42,565 bases of DNA. Source: a virus (taxonomy: Duplodnaviria > Heunggongvirae > Uroviricota > Caudoviricetes). Within the stretch, counting starts at the first letter, position 1; the number at the start of each line of letters is the position of its first letter. A program made the translations under genes and the position numbers. The stretch lies in the IMG/VR virus record IMGVR_UViG_2654588006_000002. One strand, given 5' to 3'. Below, piece after piece: positions 5,402 to 42,565 of the stretch. The notes below the pieces were generated by a model, which worked only from the letters and a program-made list of their open reading frames with translations, ran no database searches and was not told where the DNA came from.

Positions 5402-5459
5402 AAAAAGGGCGGCAGAGCAGTCACGGAGTAAAACTGATACCGCCAAACGTCACCAGAAA
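5402..5459 (-). ncRNA. dicF: DicF small RNA (ftsZ-targeting) with intrinsic terminator
   Basis: Minus strand reads TTTCTGGTGACGTTTGGCGGTATCAGTTTTACTCCGTGACTGCTCTGCCGCCCTTTTT, matching the DicF sequence recalled from memory, ending in a GGCGG/CCGCC hairpin plus U-run. Confidence 0.85.
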
Positions 5460-9652: not shown

Positions 9653-10067
9653 GGCTATATACGTCAACCACTGAGAACTCAACTAGAACGGTAACCATGA
9701 CAGTTTGGAGAACGTTAGCGTCCGGCGTTTGATGTTCGCTTTGCGCCTGAGGCTGTCTTGGTAATAGGAGCATGTTGTCAAAAGATGTCTCTTGCAACTA
9801 TCACATCGGGGATTTTAAGTGTATGCACTTAACGTTACTTTATTTTGAATAGTATAAAAATTCTCTATAAAAACAATGCATTACAATTGTTAAAAAACCA
9901 CGTTGTAGACTTTTGGTGTTATGTGTGTTGTAGAAAAATACCTATATTAATCAAATGATTATGGTTTTTAGATGAGTGAGCCAAAAAAAATTATATATAA
10001 GTTTGTGATTTTTTCACACAAGCACTAGAATGTTCTGATGCAAGTTAAGTTGTTTATGGAGGTTAGG

Positions 10068-11381
10068 ATGTTTGTTCAATTTTCTTTTAAAAATTATTTG
10101 TCGTTTAAAGATGAATCAACTCTATCGATGCTTGCCGCGAAAATTAAGTCTAAAGATAAAGGTTTAGATAAACGCGCGGTGTTTAATGCTTTTCCTGATG
10201 TTGATCTTTTAAAAGCAGCCGTTATATATGGTGCAAATGGAAGTGGAAAAAGCAATATCTTTTCTGCTTTATCTTTCATGAAGAGAATGGTGATCAATTC
10301 TTCAAAAGAATCTCAAGCAGATGAAGATATAAATGTTCTTCCATTTAAGTTAAATCCAAGGTTTGAGGATGAGCCTTCGGCTTTTGAAATGATATTTATA
10401 ATTAATAACAAACTTTACGAGTATACGTTTGCTGCTGTTCGAAATAAAATCACATCAGAAACATTATCTGTAATCGAAAAGAACAGAGATGAAGTGATTT
10501 TGTTCGAGAGAAATATGAAAGAAATAAAGGTACACAAACAGTTCAAAGAAGGTATTGGTTTAGAAAAAAGAACCAGGAAAAATGCGTTGTTCTTATCTGT
10601 CTGTGCTAATTTTGATGGCGAGGTATCTAAATCGGTAATTAGATGGTTTAGAAAAATTAGAGTTATTCAAGGTATGAGTGACATAGGTTATCTGCCATTT
10701 ACTGTGAAACTTTTGGATGATGATAATAAACGTAAAAAAATAAAATCAATTATTGATATGTTCGATCTCGATATTGTCAATATATCTAAGAGCCAAATTC
10801 AGCAGACAGAGAAAAAAGAAAATGAGCTTTTAGATGCGATATTTTCAACTATAAAAAAAGATTCAAGATTTAAAAATGTGTCTTTACCTCAGTCTAATCC
10901 ACTAGGTATCTCAACTACCCATAACCGTTTCAATGACGAAGGTGTTTTTGTAGATACAATTAATTTTGAGTTAAATGAAAACGAATCTGAAGGAACAAAA
11001 AAGCTCATTGCATTGGCTGGCCCTTTAATGGATACCTTTGACAACTCATATATATTGTTTATCGATGAGTTTGATGCAAGGCTTCATCCTTTGATTACTA
11101 AACAAATTGTTAGGATGTTCAATAGTTTAGATATCAATAAAAATAATGCGCAATTGGTAGTCGCAACGCATGATACAAATCTTTTAGATAAAGATGAGTT
11201 ACGTAGAGATCAGATATGGTTTGCGGAAAAGGACTCATTGGGTGGGTCGCATTTAAAACAACTAGTTGAATATAAAGTTAGGAACGACGCATCTTATCGA
11301 AAAGGGTATTTTGAAGGCGATTTTGGCGCTATTCCTATGTTGGGTGAGCCAGATATAATTTTTGATTCAGAATTAAATTAA
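10068..11381 (+). CDS. AAA_21/ABC-type ATPase (AbiLi-like), 437 aa
   Basis: GGAGG RBS 5 nt before ATG 10068; Walker A GANGSGKSN; signature-like ESEGTKK; Walker B ILFIDEFDARLHP; H-loop VVATHD; strongly AT-rich coding sequence. Confidence 0.85.
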   Translation: MFVQFSFKNYLSFKDESTLSMLAAKIKSKDKGLDKRAVFNAFPDVDLLKAAVIYGANGSGKSNIFSALSFMKRMVINSSKESQADEDINVLPFKLNPRFEDEPSAFEMIFIINNKLYEYTFAAVRNKITSETLSVIEKNRDEVILFERNMKEIKVHKQFKEGIGLEKRTRKNALFLSVCANFDGEVSKSVIRWFRKIRVIQGMSDIGYLPFTVKLLDDDNKRKKIKSIIDMFDLDIVNISKSQIQQTEKKENELLDAIFSTIKKDSRFKNVSLPQSNPLGISTTHNRFNDEGVFVDTINFELNENESEGTKKLIALAGPLMDTFDNSYILFIDEFDARLHPLITKQIVRMFNSLDINKNNAQLVVATHDTNLLDKDELRRDQIWFAEKDSLGGSHLKQLVEYKVRNDASYRKGYFEGDFGAIPMLGEPDIIFDSELN

Positions 11382-11408
11382 TATTTATAATTTTTGCTGA
11401 GGTTAAAA

Positions 11409-11999
11409 ATGAAATTAAAACAAAGGAACGTTGGCAGCAAAGATATTGAGAAAAAAATTCTTATTGTTTGTGAGGGGGCACGAACAGAACCGTCATACTT
11501 TAAAAAGTTTAAAGCAAATGCAAAATGTGAGGTAGTGGGGGCTGGTTGTAATACTGTTAGTGTTGTTGAAAAAGCATTAGACATGTTCTCTACAGGGAAG
11601 TTTAAAGAAGCGTGGTGTGTTTTTGATAGAGATTCTTTCACTAAGGACAGAGTTAAGTCTGCGCTTGCATTAGCACGAAAAAACAATATAAATATAGCAT
11701 TTTCTAATGAGTCGTTTGAGTTGTGGTATGTTTTGCATTTTGCATATTTAGATACAAAAATTACTCGTGGAGATTATGTGAAGGCGCTAACTGGTTATTT
11801 GGGGAAACCGTACAAAAAGAATGATGATAATATGTATCAAATACTGCTTAAGAATCAGCACAAGGCTATAGAGAGAGCGAAACGTCTTTATAATGAAATG
11901 TTGCCTCCGGGAGCTTGTGAGTGCGACTCTTATCCTTATACTACTATTCATACATTAGTTGAAAGATTAAATAAGTTAGGGCGGGAAATCGGCTCTTAA
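11409..11999 (+). CDS. RloB-like protein (AbiLii-like partner of the ATPase), 196 aa
   Basis: ATG 11409 with GAGG RBS, 27 nt after the ATPase stop; N-terminal KILIVCEGARTEPSYFKKF matches the RloB-family signature as recalled; AT-rich. Confidence 0.7.
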   Translation: MKLKQRNVGSKDIEKKILIVCEGARTEPSYFKKFKANAKCEVVGAGCNTVSVVEKALDMFSTGKFKEAWCVFDRDSFTKDRVKSALALARKNNINIAFSNESFELWYVLHFAYLDTKITRGDYVKALTGYLGKPYKKNDDNMYQILLKNQHKAIERAKRLYNEMLPPGACECDSYPYTTIHTLVERLNKLGREIGS

Positions 12000-12783
12000 T
12001 TAAAACTTATTACTTGACTGTCATATTGACTTATAAGGGTGTAGATATTAAAGATCTATACCTTTTTAATTATGTGGCTTTTAATGGTGTGTTTAGCAGA
12101 TGAATAGTTTTTGCTGTTTTGAATGTAGTTTTATTGCAAAAGGTTCGTTGTGCTTAGGGGGTATTTAAAAGTATACAAGAATAATTTTGAGCTAGTAATA
12201 TAATTTGCTGTATCTCCGTTGTCACTTCCAGTTATTAAAAAATGGAAGCTGGAAATTTTCTTTTTTACAGATTGTTATATATTTACTTTTTGTTCGCAAT
12301 GGTCCTTTGGAACTGTGAGATGATTGGTTTGTTCTTAAAACGAATCCAGACTGCTTATTAACCTCATATCCAATTGTATGGATATATTTCGATACATTGA
12401 GGTTGTTACTGGGTAGTTTGAAAATAATTATGCAAAATATCAGTTTGAGTCTGGAGAGCACATTTAAATAAGTGCTAATGATGTCTGATAGTTGTGCTCC
12501 ATGCTTCACAGAAAAACCAGAGGAATAAATAGTTGCATTGAATCACTGACGAGACAGCCTCATATTTATCAGGAGTGGTGTACGTCCAATACAGGAGGTT
12601 GTCGTGCTGGTTCTCAAATGTGCGCTGGCTATTGCGGCTGTAATGGCAATTTATTGTCTTGCTGTTGTTCTTATGGATCGCTTTTCTGATTGCTTTTAAT
12701 TGGCGAGATGACGGGAGTTAAGTAGAATGGCTGTGGGTGCTTGAGGCTATCTGCCTCGGGCATGAACACCAATGGCAGATAGA

Positions 12784-12855
12784 GAAAAGCCCCAGTTAAC
12801 ATTACGCGTCCTGCAAGACGCTTAACATTAATCTGAGGCTCAATCTATGAACGGC
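12784..12855 (-). ncRNA. Putative Sok-like antisense RNA of the hok locus (approximate)
   Basis: Minus-strand promoter-like TTGCCT-17 nt-TAACCT overlapping the mok/hok translation-initiation region; minus-strand hairpin GCGTC-TTGCAG-GACGC (plus 12806-12821) then a U-rich run; by analogy with hok/sok loci. Confidence 0.3.
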
Positions 12856-12903
12856 AAATCTAGGTTAGCCTCTTACGTGCCGAAAGGCAAGGAGAAGCAG
12901 GCT

Positions 12904-13059
12904 ATGAAGCAGCAAAAGGCGATGTTAATCGCCCTGATCGTCATCTGTTTAACCGTCATAGTGACGGCACTGGTAACGAGGAAAGACCTCTGCGAGGTAC
13001 GAATCCGAACCGGCCAGACGGAGGTCGCTGTCTTCACAGCTTACGAATCTGAGGAGTAA
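12904..13059 (+). CDS. hok: Hok/Gef family type I toxin, 51 aa; in-frame mok-like upstream start at 12847
   Basis: MKQQKAMLIALIVICLTVIVTALVTRKDLCEVRIRTGQTEVAVFTAYESEE resembles Hok; AAGGAG RBS; leader has GCTTGAGGC...TCTGCCTC and AGCCTCTTAC elements resembling hok mRNA. Confidence 0.85.
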   Translation: MKQQKAMLIALIVICLTVIVTALVTRKDLCEVRIRTGQTEVAVFTAYESEE

Positions 13060-13128
13060 GAGACCCGGCGGGGGAGAAATCCCTCGCCACCTCTGATGTG
13101 TCAGGCATTCTCAACGCACCCGCATTTA

Positions 13129-13160
13129 ACCCGCTTCGGCGGGTTTTTGTTTTTATTTTC
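13129..13160 (+). terminator. Intrinsic terminator after hok
   Basis: CCCGC-TTCG-GCGGG hairpin followed by TTTTTGTTTTTATTTT. Confidence 0.6.
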
Positions 13161-13279
13161 AACGCGTTTGAAGTTCTGGGCGGTGCCGGAATAGAATCAA
13201 AAATACTTAAGTAGCGCGCAGGGATAAGAGGGATGGACCCCGAACAGGGGAGTGCTATTTATCTGGAAGGATTCTGTTG

Positions 13280-13540
13280 ATGAAAATCGAAGAATTACGT
13301 GAAATTTTTACTGAAGATGGCCTCTATACTGTGCGCGTTGAGAATGGTGCTATTGTCAGTCACTGCCGTATTAAATGTTTACAATCTAAACAAAGGAAGA
13401 GTGGAGCTGCGTTAATTTATTTTGTGGATGAACTTGTGACAGATGGTTTTATTTTGCGTGAAAATGAATTTGTCACATCATTGCAGTCTCTGAAAGAAGC
13501 TGGGCTTAAGGCTGGTTTTTCTGCTTTTGAAGATGAGTAA
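13280..13540 (+). CDS. Hypothetical protein
   Basis: 86-aa ORF with GGAAGG upstream of ATG 13280; no recognisable motif. Confidence 0.4.
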   Translation: MKIEELREIFTEDGLYTVRVENGAIVSHCRIKCLQSKQRKSGAALIYFVDELVTDGFILRENEFVTSLQSLKEAGLKAGFSAFEDE

Positions 13541-13886: not shown

Positions 13887-14936
13887 GTGCGGATATTACT
13901 TCGACCTGTTCTGGTACCGGAACTTGGGCTGGTGGTCCTTAGGCCGGGCCGTGAATCCATGCAAGTATTTCATAACCCTCGAGTGCTGGTGGAGCCGGAA
14001 CCAAAAAGCATGCGCGGTCTGCCGTCCGGAGTCGTTCCTGCCGTTCGCCAGCCGCTGGCGGAGGATAAATCATTACTGCCATTTTTCAGCGATGAGCGGG
14101 TGATTCGTGCTGCTGGCGGCGCTGGTGCACTGTCTGACTGGCTGTTGCGTCATGTCAAATCCTGCCAGTGGCCTCATGGTGACTATCATCACAGTGAAAC
14201 CGTCATACATCGTTACGGTACCGGTGCGATGGTGTTGTGCTGGCACTGCGACAACCAGCTGCGTGACCAGACCTCTGAATCACTCGGGCAACTTGCTCAT
14301 CAAAACCTGTCAGCATGGATGATTGACGTCATACGCCATGCAATGAATGGCACACAGGAGCGGGAATTATCTCTGGCTGAATTATCCTGGTGGGCGGTCC
14401 GCAATCAGGTGGCGGACGCGCTACCGGAAGCTGTATTACGTCGTTCACTGGGGTTGCGTGCGGAAAAAATCCGCTCCTTGTACCGCGAAAGCGACATCGT
14501 ACCGGGAGAGCAGACCGCCACCAGCATACTGAAGCAGCGCACAAAAAATCTTGCGCCGTTGCTTCACACCCACCAGCCACAGAACCCAGCACAGGAAAAG
14601 GCGGTGGTCAGCATTACCGTTGATCCGGAGTCTCCGGAATCTTTCATGAGGCGACCTAAACGTCGCCGTTGGGTAAATGAGAAATATACGAGCTGGGTGA
14701 AGACACAGCCGTGTGCGTGTTGTGGTCAGCCAGCCGACGATCCCCATCACCTGATTGGTCACGGTCAGGGAGGGATGGGAACAAAGGCCCACGATATTTT
14801 CACGCTACCGCTGTGTCGGGAGCATCACAACGAGCTTCATGCGGATCCGCTGGCGTTCGAAGAAAAGCATGGTTCCCAGATTGATTTAATTTTTCGTTTT
14901 CTTGATCACGCCTTTGCAACCGGCGTGCTCGGGTAA
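13887..14936 (+). CDS. DUF968 (YdfU-like) protein with C-terminal HNH-like zinc-binding motif
   Basis: 349-aa ORF, GTG start with GGAGG RBS; C-terminus CACCGQPADDPHHLIGHG...LCREHHNELH; same size and nin-region position as Qin YdfU. Confidence 0.7.
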   Translation: MRILLRPVLVPELGLVVLRPGRESMQVFHNPRVLVEPEPKSMRGLPSGVVPAVRQPLAEDKSLLPFFSDERVIRAAGGAGALSDWLLRHVKSCQWPHGDYHHSETVIHRYGTGAMVLCWHCDNQLRDQTSESLGQLAHQNLSAWMIDVIRHAMNGTQERELSLAELSWWAVRNQVADALPEAVLRRSLGLRAEKIRSLYRESDIVPGEQTATSILKQRTKNLAPLLHTHQPQNPAQEKAVVSITVDPESPESFMRRPKRRRWVNEKYTSWVKTQPCACCGQPADDPHHLIGHGQGGMGTKAHDIFTLPLCREHHNELHADPLAFEEKHGSQIDLIFRFLDHAFATGVLG

Positions 14937-16204: not shown

Positions 16205-16280
16205 GGCCCTTTAGCTCAGTGGTGAGAGCGAGCGACTCATAATCGCCAGGTCGCTGGTTCAAATCCAGCAAGGGCCACCA
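16205..16280 (+). tRNA. tRNA with CAU anticodon, tRNA-Ile2 (lysidine) type or Met
   Basis: GGCCCTTTAGCTCAGTGGTGAGAGCGAGCGACTCATAATCGCCAGGTCGCTGGTTCAAATCCAGCAAGGGCCACCA; 7-bp acceptor stem, U8, loop CTCATAA; resembles E. coli ileX-type tRNA from memory. Confidence 0.85.
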
Positions 16281-16281
16281 A

Positions 16282-16358
16282 CCGTCACCAGTTCATCAGG
16301 AAAGAGCGTCAACCCTTTAAGTTGAGTGTGCGAGGTTCGAGTCCCCGGTGGCGGTCCA
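16282..16358 (+). tRNA. Atypical tRNA-like gene (anticodon-loop CCTTTAA, UUU/Lys-like; C1, C8, C33), possibly a pseudo-tRNA
   Basis: Folds by eye as a cloverleaf (acceptor CCGTCAC/GTGGCGG with G-U, anticodon stem TCAAC/GTTGA, TPsiC GGTTCGAGTCC, 3' CCA) but lacks the near-invariant U8 and U33. Confidence 0.45.
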
Positions 16359-16360
16359 GT

Positions 16361-16436
<76 letters not shown>

Positions 16437-16439
16437 TAT

Positions 16440-16514
<75 letters not shown>

Positions 16515-41984: not shown

Positions 41985-42565
41985 TGGCATTCAGAATGAG
42001 TGAACAAGCACGGACCATAAAAATTTATAATCTGTTGTCCGGAACTAATGAATTTATTGGTGACGGTGACGCATATATTCCACCTCATACAGGTCTGCCT
42101 GCAAACAGTACCTATATTGCACCGCCAGATATTCCGGCTGGTTTCGTGGCTGTTTTCAACAGTGATGAGTCATCGTGGCATCTCGTTGAAGATCATCGGG
42201 GTAAAACGGTTTATGACGTGGCTTCCGGCGACGCGTTATTTATTTCTGAACTCGGCTCATTACCGGAAAATGTCACCTGGTTATCCCCGGAAGGGGAGTT
42301 TCAGAAGTGGAACGGCACAGCCTGGGTGAAGGATACGGAAGCAGAAAAACTGTTCCGGATCCGGGAGGCGGAAGAAACAAAAAACAGCCTGATGCAGGTA
42401 GCCAGTGAGCATATAGCGCCACTTCAGGATGCTGTAGATCTGGAGATCGCAACGGAGGAAGAAATCTCGTTGCTGGAAGCATGGAAAAAGTATCGGGTAT
42501 TGCTGAACCGTGTTGATACGTCAACTGCACAGGATATTGAATGGCCAGTAGCACCTATAGGGTAA
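41984..42565 (+). CDS. tfa: Tail fibre assembly protein Tfa
   Basis: [51 protein letters not shown]... near-identical to lambda Tfa as recalled; ATG overlaps the stf stop (TAATG). Confidence 0.85.

Follow-up and report, generated by a model that had tools for sequence, protein, structure and literature searches.

Results

A complete hok/mok/sok locus

The DNA analysed here, referred to throughout as the window, is the whole 42,565-nucleotide stretch of the Caudoviricetes record IMGVR_UViG_2654588006_000002, and its positions from about 12700 to 13155 hold a hok/mok/sok type I toxin-antitoxin locus. An original prediction, made from the letters of the window alone, had proposed such a locus, carried by a prophage, at 12784-13160, and every family-defining feature that can be tested in a sequence was indeed found. 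The right part of that interval stands, whereas its left edge lies about 50-85 nucleotides (nt) too far to the right: given a promoter at 12700 and an mRNA start at 12735, a start at 12784 leaves out the promoter together with 49 nt at the 5' end of the mRNA. All elements of the locus are present and in order, they fold and covary, and the whole is nearly identical to loci that have been tested by experiment. From left to right they are:

12700..12728 (+), promoter of the hok/mok mRNA, sigma-70-like TTGGCG-17-TAGAAT, from a promoter scan
12735..13153 (+), full-length hok mRNA, about 419 nt long, with ends inferred from homology (5') and from the terminator (3')
12735..12746 (+), tac (translational activator) element GGGUGCUUGAGG, paired in both the full-length and the 3'-truncated folds
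12787..12793 (+), ucb or anti-Shine-Dalgarno box AAGCCCC, paired with the mok Shine-Dalgarno (SD) sequence in the full-length fold or with tac in the truncated fold
12795..12832 (+), Sok-target hairpin in the leader of hok, complementary to the terminator hairpin of Sok
12835..12838 (+), mok SD GAGG, 8 nt before the mok ATG
12839..12862 (no strand assigned), hypervariable patch comprising the mok start codon and codons 2-5, which are also the single-stranded 5' tail of Sok; 36 alleles among related loci
12847..13059 (+), mok reading frame of 70 amino acids (aa), in frame with hok and thus an N-terminally extended Hok
12855 to 12779 (-), predicted Sok antitoxin RNA of about 77 nt, ends placed by alignment to the annotated sokC of K-12
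12862..12890 (-), Sok promoter, -35 TTGCCT (12890-12885), 17-nt spacer, -10 TAACCT (12867-12862)
12867..12872 (+), dcb (downstream complementary box) AGCCUC, paired with 12835-12840 in the truncated fold
12889..12894 (+), hok SD AAGGAG, 9 nt before the hok ATG and conserved across the family alignment
12904..13059 (+), hok toxin gene, 51 aa, MKQQKAMLIALIVICLTVIVTALVTRKDLCEVRIRTGQTEVAVFTAYESEE, identified by Pfam, PHROG and homologues
13042..13045 (+), UACG motif, candidate TadA A-to-I editing site, formed by the Tyr47 codon and the G of the Glu48 codon
13109..13121 (+), fbi (fold-back inhibitory) element UCUCAACGCACCC, paired with tac by 12 pairs and one bulge in the minimum-free-energy (MFE) fold
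13128..13155 (+), intrinsic terminator at the end of the hok mRNA, AACCCGC-TTCG-GCGGGTT plus a run of T

The 51-aa open reading frame (ORF) matches the full length (1-42) of the Pfam model HOK_GEF (PF01848), scoring 82.9 bits (E 1.2e-23) where the cut-off is 22, which bears out the Hok-family toxin that had been proposed. A second profile, PHROG 251 ('MokW-like host killing'), is matched with E 6e-33. Its product is identical to HokD of Escherichia coli K-12 at 50 of 51 residues and to HokW at 48. The in-frame mok-like start at 12847 was likewise correctly called: it lies 57 nt (19 codons) 5' of the hok ATG, the ORF listing gives it a 70-aa product, and the mok ORF overlaps hok and has an SD of its own, with hok translation predicted to depend on it. 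Both exact proteins, of 70 and 51 aa, are already present in public collections as Hok family or HokD, and the 70-aa sequence has been seen on 149 contigs in a protein collection. Editing at the candidate UACG site would recode Tyr47 to Cys, the residue that HokA and HokB encode genomically (TGC) in the same column. The motif and the Tyr-to-Cys recoding are known for the Hok family, and HokD peptides were toxic in the same recent survey (bioRxiv 10.1101/2025.08.07.668861).

When the whole window was scanned with Rfam, the model RF01794 ('sok') gave a single match, at 12735-12909 (+), with 108 bits (gathering score 59; E 9e-24) and covering the full model (1-157). This match sits on the hok-sense strand, and the 3' end of the model is aligned with the hok SD and start codon; RF01794 thus recognises the leader of the hok mRNA rather than the antisense Sok gene.

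The locus is common, occurring at a set position in the lambda-like prophages of most E. coli genomes. A megablast of 12700-13170 gave matches in 4723 of the 5426 complete E. coli genomes searched; the median is two copies per genome and the maximum nine, and all 25 of the matches listed carry the hokD annotation. The same query matched 102 phage records, where the annotation reads MokW, HokD or 'host killer', and hokD-like loci of plasmids are about 87% identical. Hok has been found in almost 80% of Enterobacteriaceae genomes, enriched in prophages (bioRxiv 10.1101/2025.08.07.668861).

Folding of the hok mRNA

The hok promoter ends 7 nt 5' of the point at which the Rfam model and all homologues begin (GGGTGCTTGAGG), model position 1 being aligned to 12735. 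At the other end, the strong terminator of the original prediction proved to be a stem-loop at 13128-13145 with a 7-bp stem, five G-C pairs and a 4-nt loop, followed by the T run TTTGTTTTTA. The two leader motifs named in that prediction are also present, GCTTGAGGC...TCTGCCTC at 12740-12757 and AGCCTCTTAC at 12867-12876, although the first falls outside the interval that had been given for the locus. The 419-nt mRNA has an MFE of -168.6 kcal/mol (z -5.94 against dinucleotide shuffles), a value that none of the shuffles reached.

MFE folds were computed for three forms of the RNA, namely the full-length mRNA (12735-13153), the mRNA truncated at its 3' end at 13105, and the leader alone. In the full-length form, both the MFE and the centroid fold pair 12735-12746 with 13109-13121, and the MFE fold also pairs the ucb at 12788-12793 with the mok SD region at 12835-12840. 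After truncation, tac (12735-12742) is paired with 12787-12793 instead, and 12835-12840 is paired with 12867-12872. In the leader alone, 12737-12747 pairs with 12753-12763 and thereby forms the metastable hairpin. The published model has three states: a metastable 5' hairpin in the nascent RNA, a closed form with tac/fbi and ucb/mok-SD pairing, and a 3'-truncated form with tac/ucb and mok-SD/dcb pairing (PMC9841398). The folds of the window recover all three. The energy of the tac/fbi duplex was reached by only 2 of 300 shuffles of the 3' region.

The antisense strand

The Sok gene was predicted on the minus strand over the mok translation start, with a promoter, a single-stranded 5' tail, a long hairpin and a U-rich end (GGGGCUUUUCUCU); the antisense promoter-like element and hairpin of the original prediction correspond to TTGCCT-17-TAACCT and the long hairpin that follows it. 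Its ends were set by aligning the window with the hokC and hokB loci of K-12, in which sokC and sokB are annotated, and the predicted 5' end lies nine bases inside mok, just as sokC does relative to mokC. In this comparison with known hok/sok loci, of the kind that had been proposed as a check, the Sok gene aligns with sokC and sokB. The predicted RNA has an MFE of -33 kcal/mol (z = -5.8), an energy that was not reached by any of 200 shuffles. Compared with the Rfam consensus and with hokB and hokC, the Sok-target hairpin carries a 16-nt insertion, which is common to hokW, to phage mEp460 and to the hokD-like loci of plasmids.

The -10 hexamer TAACCT has only three of six consensus matches and falls under the threshold of a simple promoter scan; the promoter was placed by homology instead. 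The promoter stretch is identical to that of hokW-sokW in Stx2 phage I and Sakai prophage 5, and it matches the oligonucleotides YO-597 and YO-421 that were used to probe and mutate sokW (PMC8621323). In that study sokW was found to be a functional antitoxin by mutation and northern blot; mutation of its promoter abolished protection, which Sok supplied in trans partly restored (PMC8621323).

Conserved pairings and a hypervariable patch

For an analysis of covariation, 53 related loci were collected with a single protein of the window as query, one genome per species, together with phage, plasmid and K-12 loci, a set that is biased toward hokC- and hokD-like loci by its single query. The tac/fbi test was restricted to the 13-nt tac box, as long windows (105 nt upstream by 125 nt downstream) gave over-extended duplexes and uninformative z-scores. 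In 40 of the 45 loci with a recognisable tac, the best partner of this box lies 45-56 nt past the hok stop codon, in genera as diverse as Escherichia, Shigella, Kluyvera, Citrobacter, Pantoea and Photorhabdus. Two compensatory changes were seen in the duplex: GGGUGC/GCACCC becomes GGGCGC/GCGCCC in Photorhabdus and Pantoea (U-A to C-G), and GAGG/CCUC becomes GAGA/UCUC in Kluyvera, Photorhabdus and hokB (G-C to A-U). Pairings that are kept by compensatory change across genera point to selection on the RNA mechanism.

The fbi of the window reads UUCUC in place of the UCCUC of its closest relatives, with a duplex energy of -19.4 instead of -21.5 kcal/mol, and the same variant occurs in three other loci of the set (L068, L070 and L071).

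The mok-SD/dcb hairpin encloses the hypervariable patch. It is formed with all 36 alleles of the patch, the flanking GAGGC/GCCUC stem being always retained, and at least six alleles occur among loci that encode an identical Hok protein. The allele of the window is found in 1631 E. coli genomes, in 1589 of them at 99% identity or more. This variability fits an insulation of the 2-9 hok/sok copies that reside together in a genome.

Discussion

Mechanism, role and the possibility of a silent copy

Taken together, the results point to a type I toxin-antitoxin locus of the hokD/hokW subtype whose hok, mok and sok parts are all structurally intact, and which a lambdoid prophage carries in its early-right region. 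To this reading, including the canonical mechanism of plasmid R1 that we infer for it, we assign a probability of roughly 90%. The locus is of a kind already known, and its anatomy fits the published model throughout. In the RefSeq records examined only the 51-aa hokD ORF is marked, while mok, Sok and the mRNA elements are unannotated, and exact coordinates are thus useful for annotation; a literature search for 'sokD' or 'mokD' found nothing relevant.

By this mechanism, a weak constitutive promoter (12700-12728) would give rise to a stable mRNA of about 419 nt, the 5' end of which would be locked in the metastable hairpin during transcription. In the complete mRNA, the pairing of tac (12735-12746) with fbi (13109-13121) and of ucb with the mok SD would allow neither ribosomes nor Sok to act. 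Slow trimming of the 3' end would then remove fbi, tac would switch to ucb and the mok SD region would pair with dcb in a hairpin, and the truncated mRNA would, per the R1 model, be the form that can be translated and bound by Sok. In a living lysogen, the short-lived Sok of about 77 nt would pair across the mok start and block mok translation, and with it the coupled translation of hok, while the duplex of Sok and hok mRNA would be cut by RNase III. Should Sok synthesis stop, be it by loss of the element, by the transcription shut-off of an infecting phage or by prophage induction, the stable pool of hok mRNA would mature and the 51-aa Hok would enter the inner membrane, depolarising or lysing the cell.

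While this molecular mechanism can be assigned with high confidence, no such assignment is possible for the biological role. The original prediction suggested that the locus may stabilise the prophage or contribute to phage exclusion. Direct experiments on prophage copies of the subtype exist only for hokW-sokW of Sakai prophage 5 (Sp5), in which Sok is lost upon RecA-dependent induction and the membrane-located Hok aids lysis and doubles the release of Sp5 (PMC8621323). R1 hok/sok, as cited in the same paper, acts in post-segregational killing. With hokW-sokW as the best precedent, help with induction-linked lysis would probably rank first among the roles of the window locus, and prophage addiction and phage exclusion would share the next rank.

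Several points weigh against the interpretation of the locus as an active system. One tac/fbi pair, G-C in the closest relatives, is weakened to G.U in the window, because 13109 is a T. The Sok -10 TAACCT is weak enough to be missed by a simple promoter scan, yet the validated sokW has the very same hexamer. Truncation leaves the mok SD paired with dcb in the MFE fold, and that ribosomes can reach it is a point of the R1 model, not of the fold. Structural intactness is no proof of activity, the expression of this copy being predicted from its sequence, and for the suggested role there is just one study, on a homologue, to extrapolate from. Transcription, processing, toxicity and role of the window copy are accordingly worded here as what we infer.

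The main rival explanation is that the copy is structurally complete but silent, a selfish or decaying passenger that is kept solely by its linkage to the prophage and would at no time make Hok in nature, much as the chromosomal hok loci of K-12. The G.U pair and the weak -10 speak for it, as does the fate of the K-12 loci, all five of which are damaged: the leader of hokA is interrupted by IS150, hokC and hokE are closely followed by IS186, and the leader of hokD has given way to relBE. One locus in our survey (L017) has no tac motif, and even intact chromosomal hokA, hokB and hokC are reported to show neither post-segregational killing nor a response to rifampicin (bioRxiv 10.1101/2025.08.07.668861). 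However, the regulatory elements of the window are all intact and in register, the pairings between them are kept by compensatory change across genera, the exact Sok-tail allele is found unchanged in about 1600 genomes, and the near-identical hokW-sokW is active with a measurable phenotype (PMC8621323). We therefore regard a silent copy as unlikely.

Prophage context and the AbiL neighbour

A prophage of E. coli O78 strain 3, integrated beside tRNA-Ser and mtfA, shares 99.7% identity with the window over 27 kb. The genes are arranged in the order integrase, exonuclease, dicB/DicF, repressor/Cro, YdaT, DnaT-like protein and P; then AAA ATPase, RloB, hok, a Rem-family ORF, DUF968, RusA and Q; and finally four tRNAs, the lysis genes and HK97-type head genes. 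In ten contexts that were chosen for their differing neighbourhoods, the identical Hok is always encoded in a lambdoid prophage, flanked by the replication module on one side and the Q region on the other.

The AAA ATPase (10068-11381, +) matches the PADLOC model AbiLi (E 4.5e-91) and RloB (11409-11999, +) matches AbiLii (E 2.9e-29), the pair also matching Pfam AAA_21 and RloB. Going by these profile matches, it is an AbiL abortive-infection system that lies outside the hok locus. The original prediction had the locus abut this ATPase/RloB island and saw two toxic or abortive modules clustered. The two are near each other and on the same strand, but about 700 bp separate the end of the RloB ORF at 11999 from the hok promoter. 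Nor is the pairing a conserved one: the segment that joins RloB to the hok flank has at least 80% query coverage in only 4 of the 5426 E. coli genomes. A conserved AbiL-hok pairing was rejected on this distribution and on the varied cargo of relatives.

That hok/sok and AbiL nevertheless form one co-selected, two-module abortive-infection island is, in our judgement, very unlikely. The shared strand and the short distance would agree with it; R1 hok/sok, moreover, is reported to reduce the plating of T4 modestly (as cited in PMC8621323), and in sampled relatives the slot 5' of hok sometimes holds the defence candidates PD-T7-1 or PDC-S15/FRG. Against this, the AbiL cassette (about 9750-12460) is a separate insert of low GC content, about 30% as opposed to about 49-54% in the hok locus; its junction with hok occurs in 4 genomes and hok in 4723; and the identical Hok lies beside unrelated cargo, or none, in other prophages. 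In a published genome-wide survey hok was near defence systems in 12% of cases versus 9.4% expected, which is no enrichment. The adjacency of AbiL looks like coincidental cargo in a variable slot and not like a coupled two-toxin module. Weakest of all is the idea of a chance resemblance or a mis-called small ORF with no toxin-antitoxin locus behind it, for which we found no support, the sole caution being that RF01794 matches the hok-sense and not the antisense strand, and which is ruled out for practical purposes by the E values of the RNA model (9e-24) and the protein model (1e-23), by a folding z of about -6 and by the thousands of near-identical loci that carry the hokD annotation.

The slot between the replication genes and hok varies among lambdoid prophages (e.g. 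loci L005, 1112-2461 -; L013, 749-2083 -; L012, L014 and L068-L077). In phage mEp460 it holds a PD-T7-1 homologue (E 4e-157), and elsewhere a PDC-S15/FRG protein, a hypothetical protein of about 1210 aa, methyltransferases, a solute-binding-like protein or small ORFs only.

Between the slot and the hok locus of the window lies an unannotated hydrophobic ORF of 31 aa (12604-12699, +; MLVLKCALAIAAVMAIYCLAVVLMDRFSDCF), with a strong SD, AGGAGG, 4 nt before its GTG start and an end one base 5' of the hok -35 hexamer. ORFs of 29-34 aa occupy the same place in other prophages, one of them with about 50% protein identity at about 72% DNA identity (MSDDISLAMEGALAVIAVVGVYCLVVFLMDRLGN), and in the lineage of Stx2 phage I and hokW a hydrophobic ORF of 27-44 aa (MTWPEAF..VYSICRW..) is found there. 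Three of these peptides gave no PHROG match, and the window peptide gave no Pfam match. Among close relatives of the upstream ORF we counted four synonymous and four non-synonymous substitutions, a number too small to judge coding.

It is tempting, if doubtful, to see the hokD-type locus as more than an isolated addiction module, namely as the fixed right-hand border of a cargo slot, with a conserved gene for a small membrane protein (27-44 aa; 12604-12699 in the window) in between and with diversification of the Sok tail and mok codons 2-5 insulating co-resident copies. A small protein that works with Hok, or a defence hot spot anchored by hok/sok, would be new if true. As they stand, the variable slot, the small upstream ORF and the hypervariable Sok tail are modest leads, mildly new, and not discoveries.

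Other features of the window

Just past the hok terminator there is a promoter-like site, TTGAAG-18-TAGAAT (13168-13197, +), followed by an ORF of 87 aa (13277-13540). This ORF is assigned to PF27490 Rem in the precomputed annotation of identical contexts and matches PHROG 340 (unknown function), with no match in the local copy of Pfam. The DicF small RNA lies at 5407-5458 (-; 76.7 bits) and an IS009 RNA at 42327-42525 (+; 222 bits). Four prophage tRNAs are located 5' of the lysis genes at 16205-16514 (+), which ARAGORN calls Met(CAT), Lys, Thr and Gly; the first is a tRNA-Ile in RefSeq, and Rfam reported three of the four. A fifth tRNA (892-978, +), tRNA-Ser in the matching RefSeq record, adjoins the integrase gene of the prophage.

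The integrase gene (1034-2059, -; 341 aa) and the DUF968 gene (13887-14936, +; 349 aa) are long uninterrupted ORFs in the window, and both are frameshifted pseudogenes in the 99.7%-identical O78 prophage. The window prophage may thus be less decayed than the O78 copy.

Comparison with known systems

The hok/sok (parB) locus of plasmid R1 has the same architecture as the window, a toxin of the same family and all of the named elements (tac, fbi, ucb, dcb, the metastable hairpin and the mok SD), and in both the Sok promoter overlaps the hok SD region. The R1-type plasmid locus in our set (L007) has IS150 in its leader, leaving only its mok/hok and 3' parts usable as a reference. Identity between the two Hok proteins is 41%; the mok frame differs from that of hok in R1, as read from the R1-type sequence, but is the same in the window; and R1 is a conjugative plasmid in which the role in post-segregational killing is proven. 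R1 Sok has about 64 nt, while the predicted Sok of the window reaches about 77 nt because of the 16-nt extension of its hairpin.

The chromosomal hokC/mokC/sokC locus (gef) of K-12 resembles the window in that mok is in frame and has its stop codon in common with hok. Its toxin is 84% identical, and in the alignment the start predicted for the window Sok coincides, base for base, with the annotated sokC. In contrast, hokC is without the 16-nt hairpin insertion and belongs to the core chromosome, not to a prophage, and IS186 lies within about 20 nt 3' of it, which removes the native 3' end including fbi.

A much closer relative is hokW-sokW of Sakai prophage 5 and of the Stx2 phages 933W and Stx2 phage I (Takada et al. 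2021, PMC8621323), which is of the same subtype and likewise carried by lambdoid prophages. It is 93.9% identical to the window in DNA over 409 nt, with 48 of the 51 Hok residues in common, and the two loci are identical in the 5' end of the leader, the Sok promoter, the target hairpin with its 16-nt extension and the fbi core; in both, mok is in frame. They differ at the mok start and Sok 5' tail (CTATGAACGGCAAATCTAGG in the window, CCATGCTGAACACATGTAGG in hokW), in three residues at the C terminus of Hok (TAYESEE as opposed to VDYESEK), in the 3' end and terminator after fbi, and in the upstream flank. The locus of Stx2 phage I (933W type) is situated about 3 kb from the annotated attachment site, adjoining EaA-like and other ORFs of early-left type, unlike the window locus between the replication genes and the Q antiterminator.

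By toxin, the nearest of these systems is hokD (relF) of the cryptic prophage Qin of K-12, which differs at a single residue (S49P). The two loci have the 3' untranslated region, fbi, the terminator and the downstream rem gene in common, and both elements carry DicF/dicB. However, K-12 hokD is without the promoter, tac, ucb, Sok target, mok and Sok gene of the complete form in the window. In the narrow sense of a gene that lies directly 3' of relBE and has neither mok nor sok, the window locus is not a hokD, as it has a full leader, mok and sok and no relBE, and the RefSeq label 'hokD' fits its toxin only. The homology of the K-12 locus (L006, 1620-2373) to the window starts about 15 nt before the hokD ATG, at the relBE junction: K-12 hokD is a truncated remnant of a locus of the window type, in which relBE replaces the leader.

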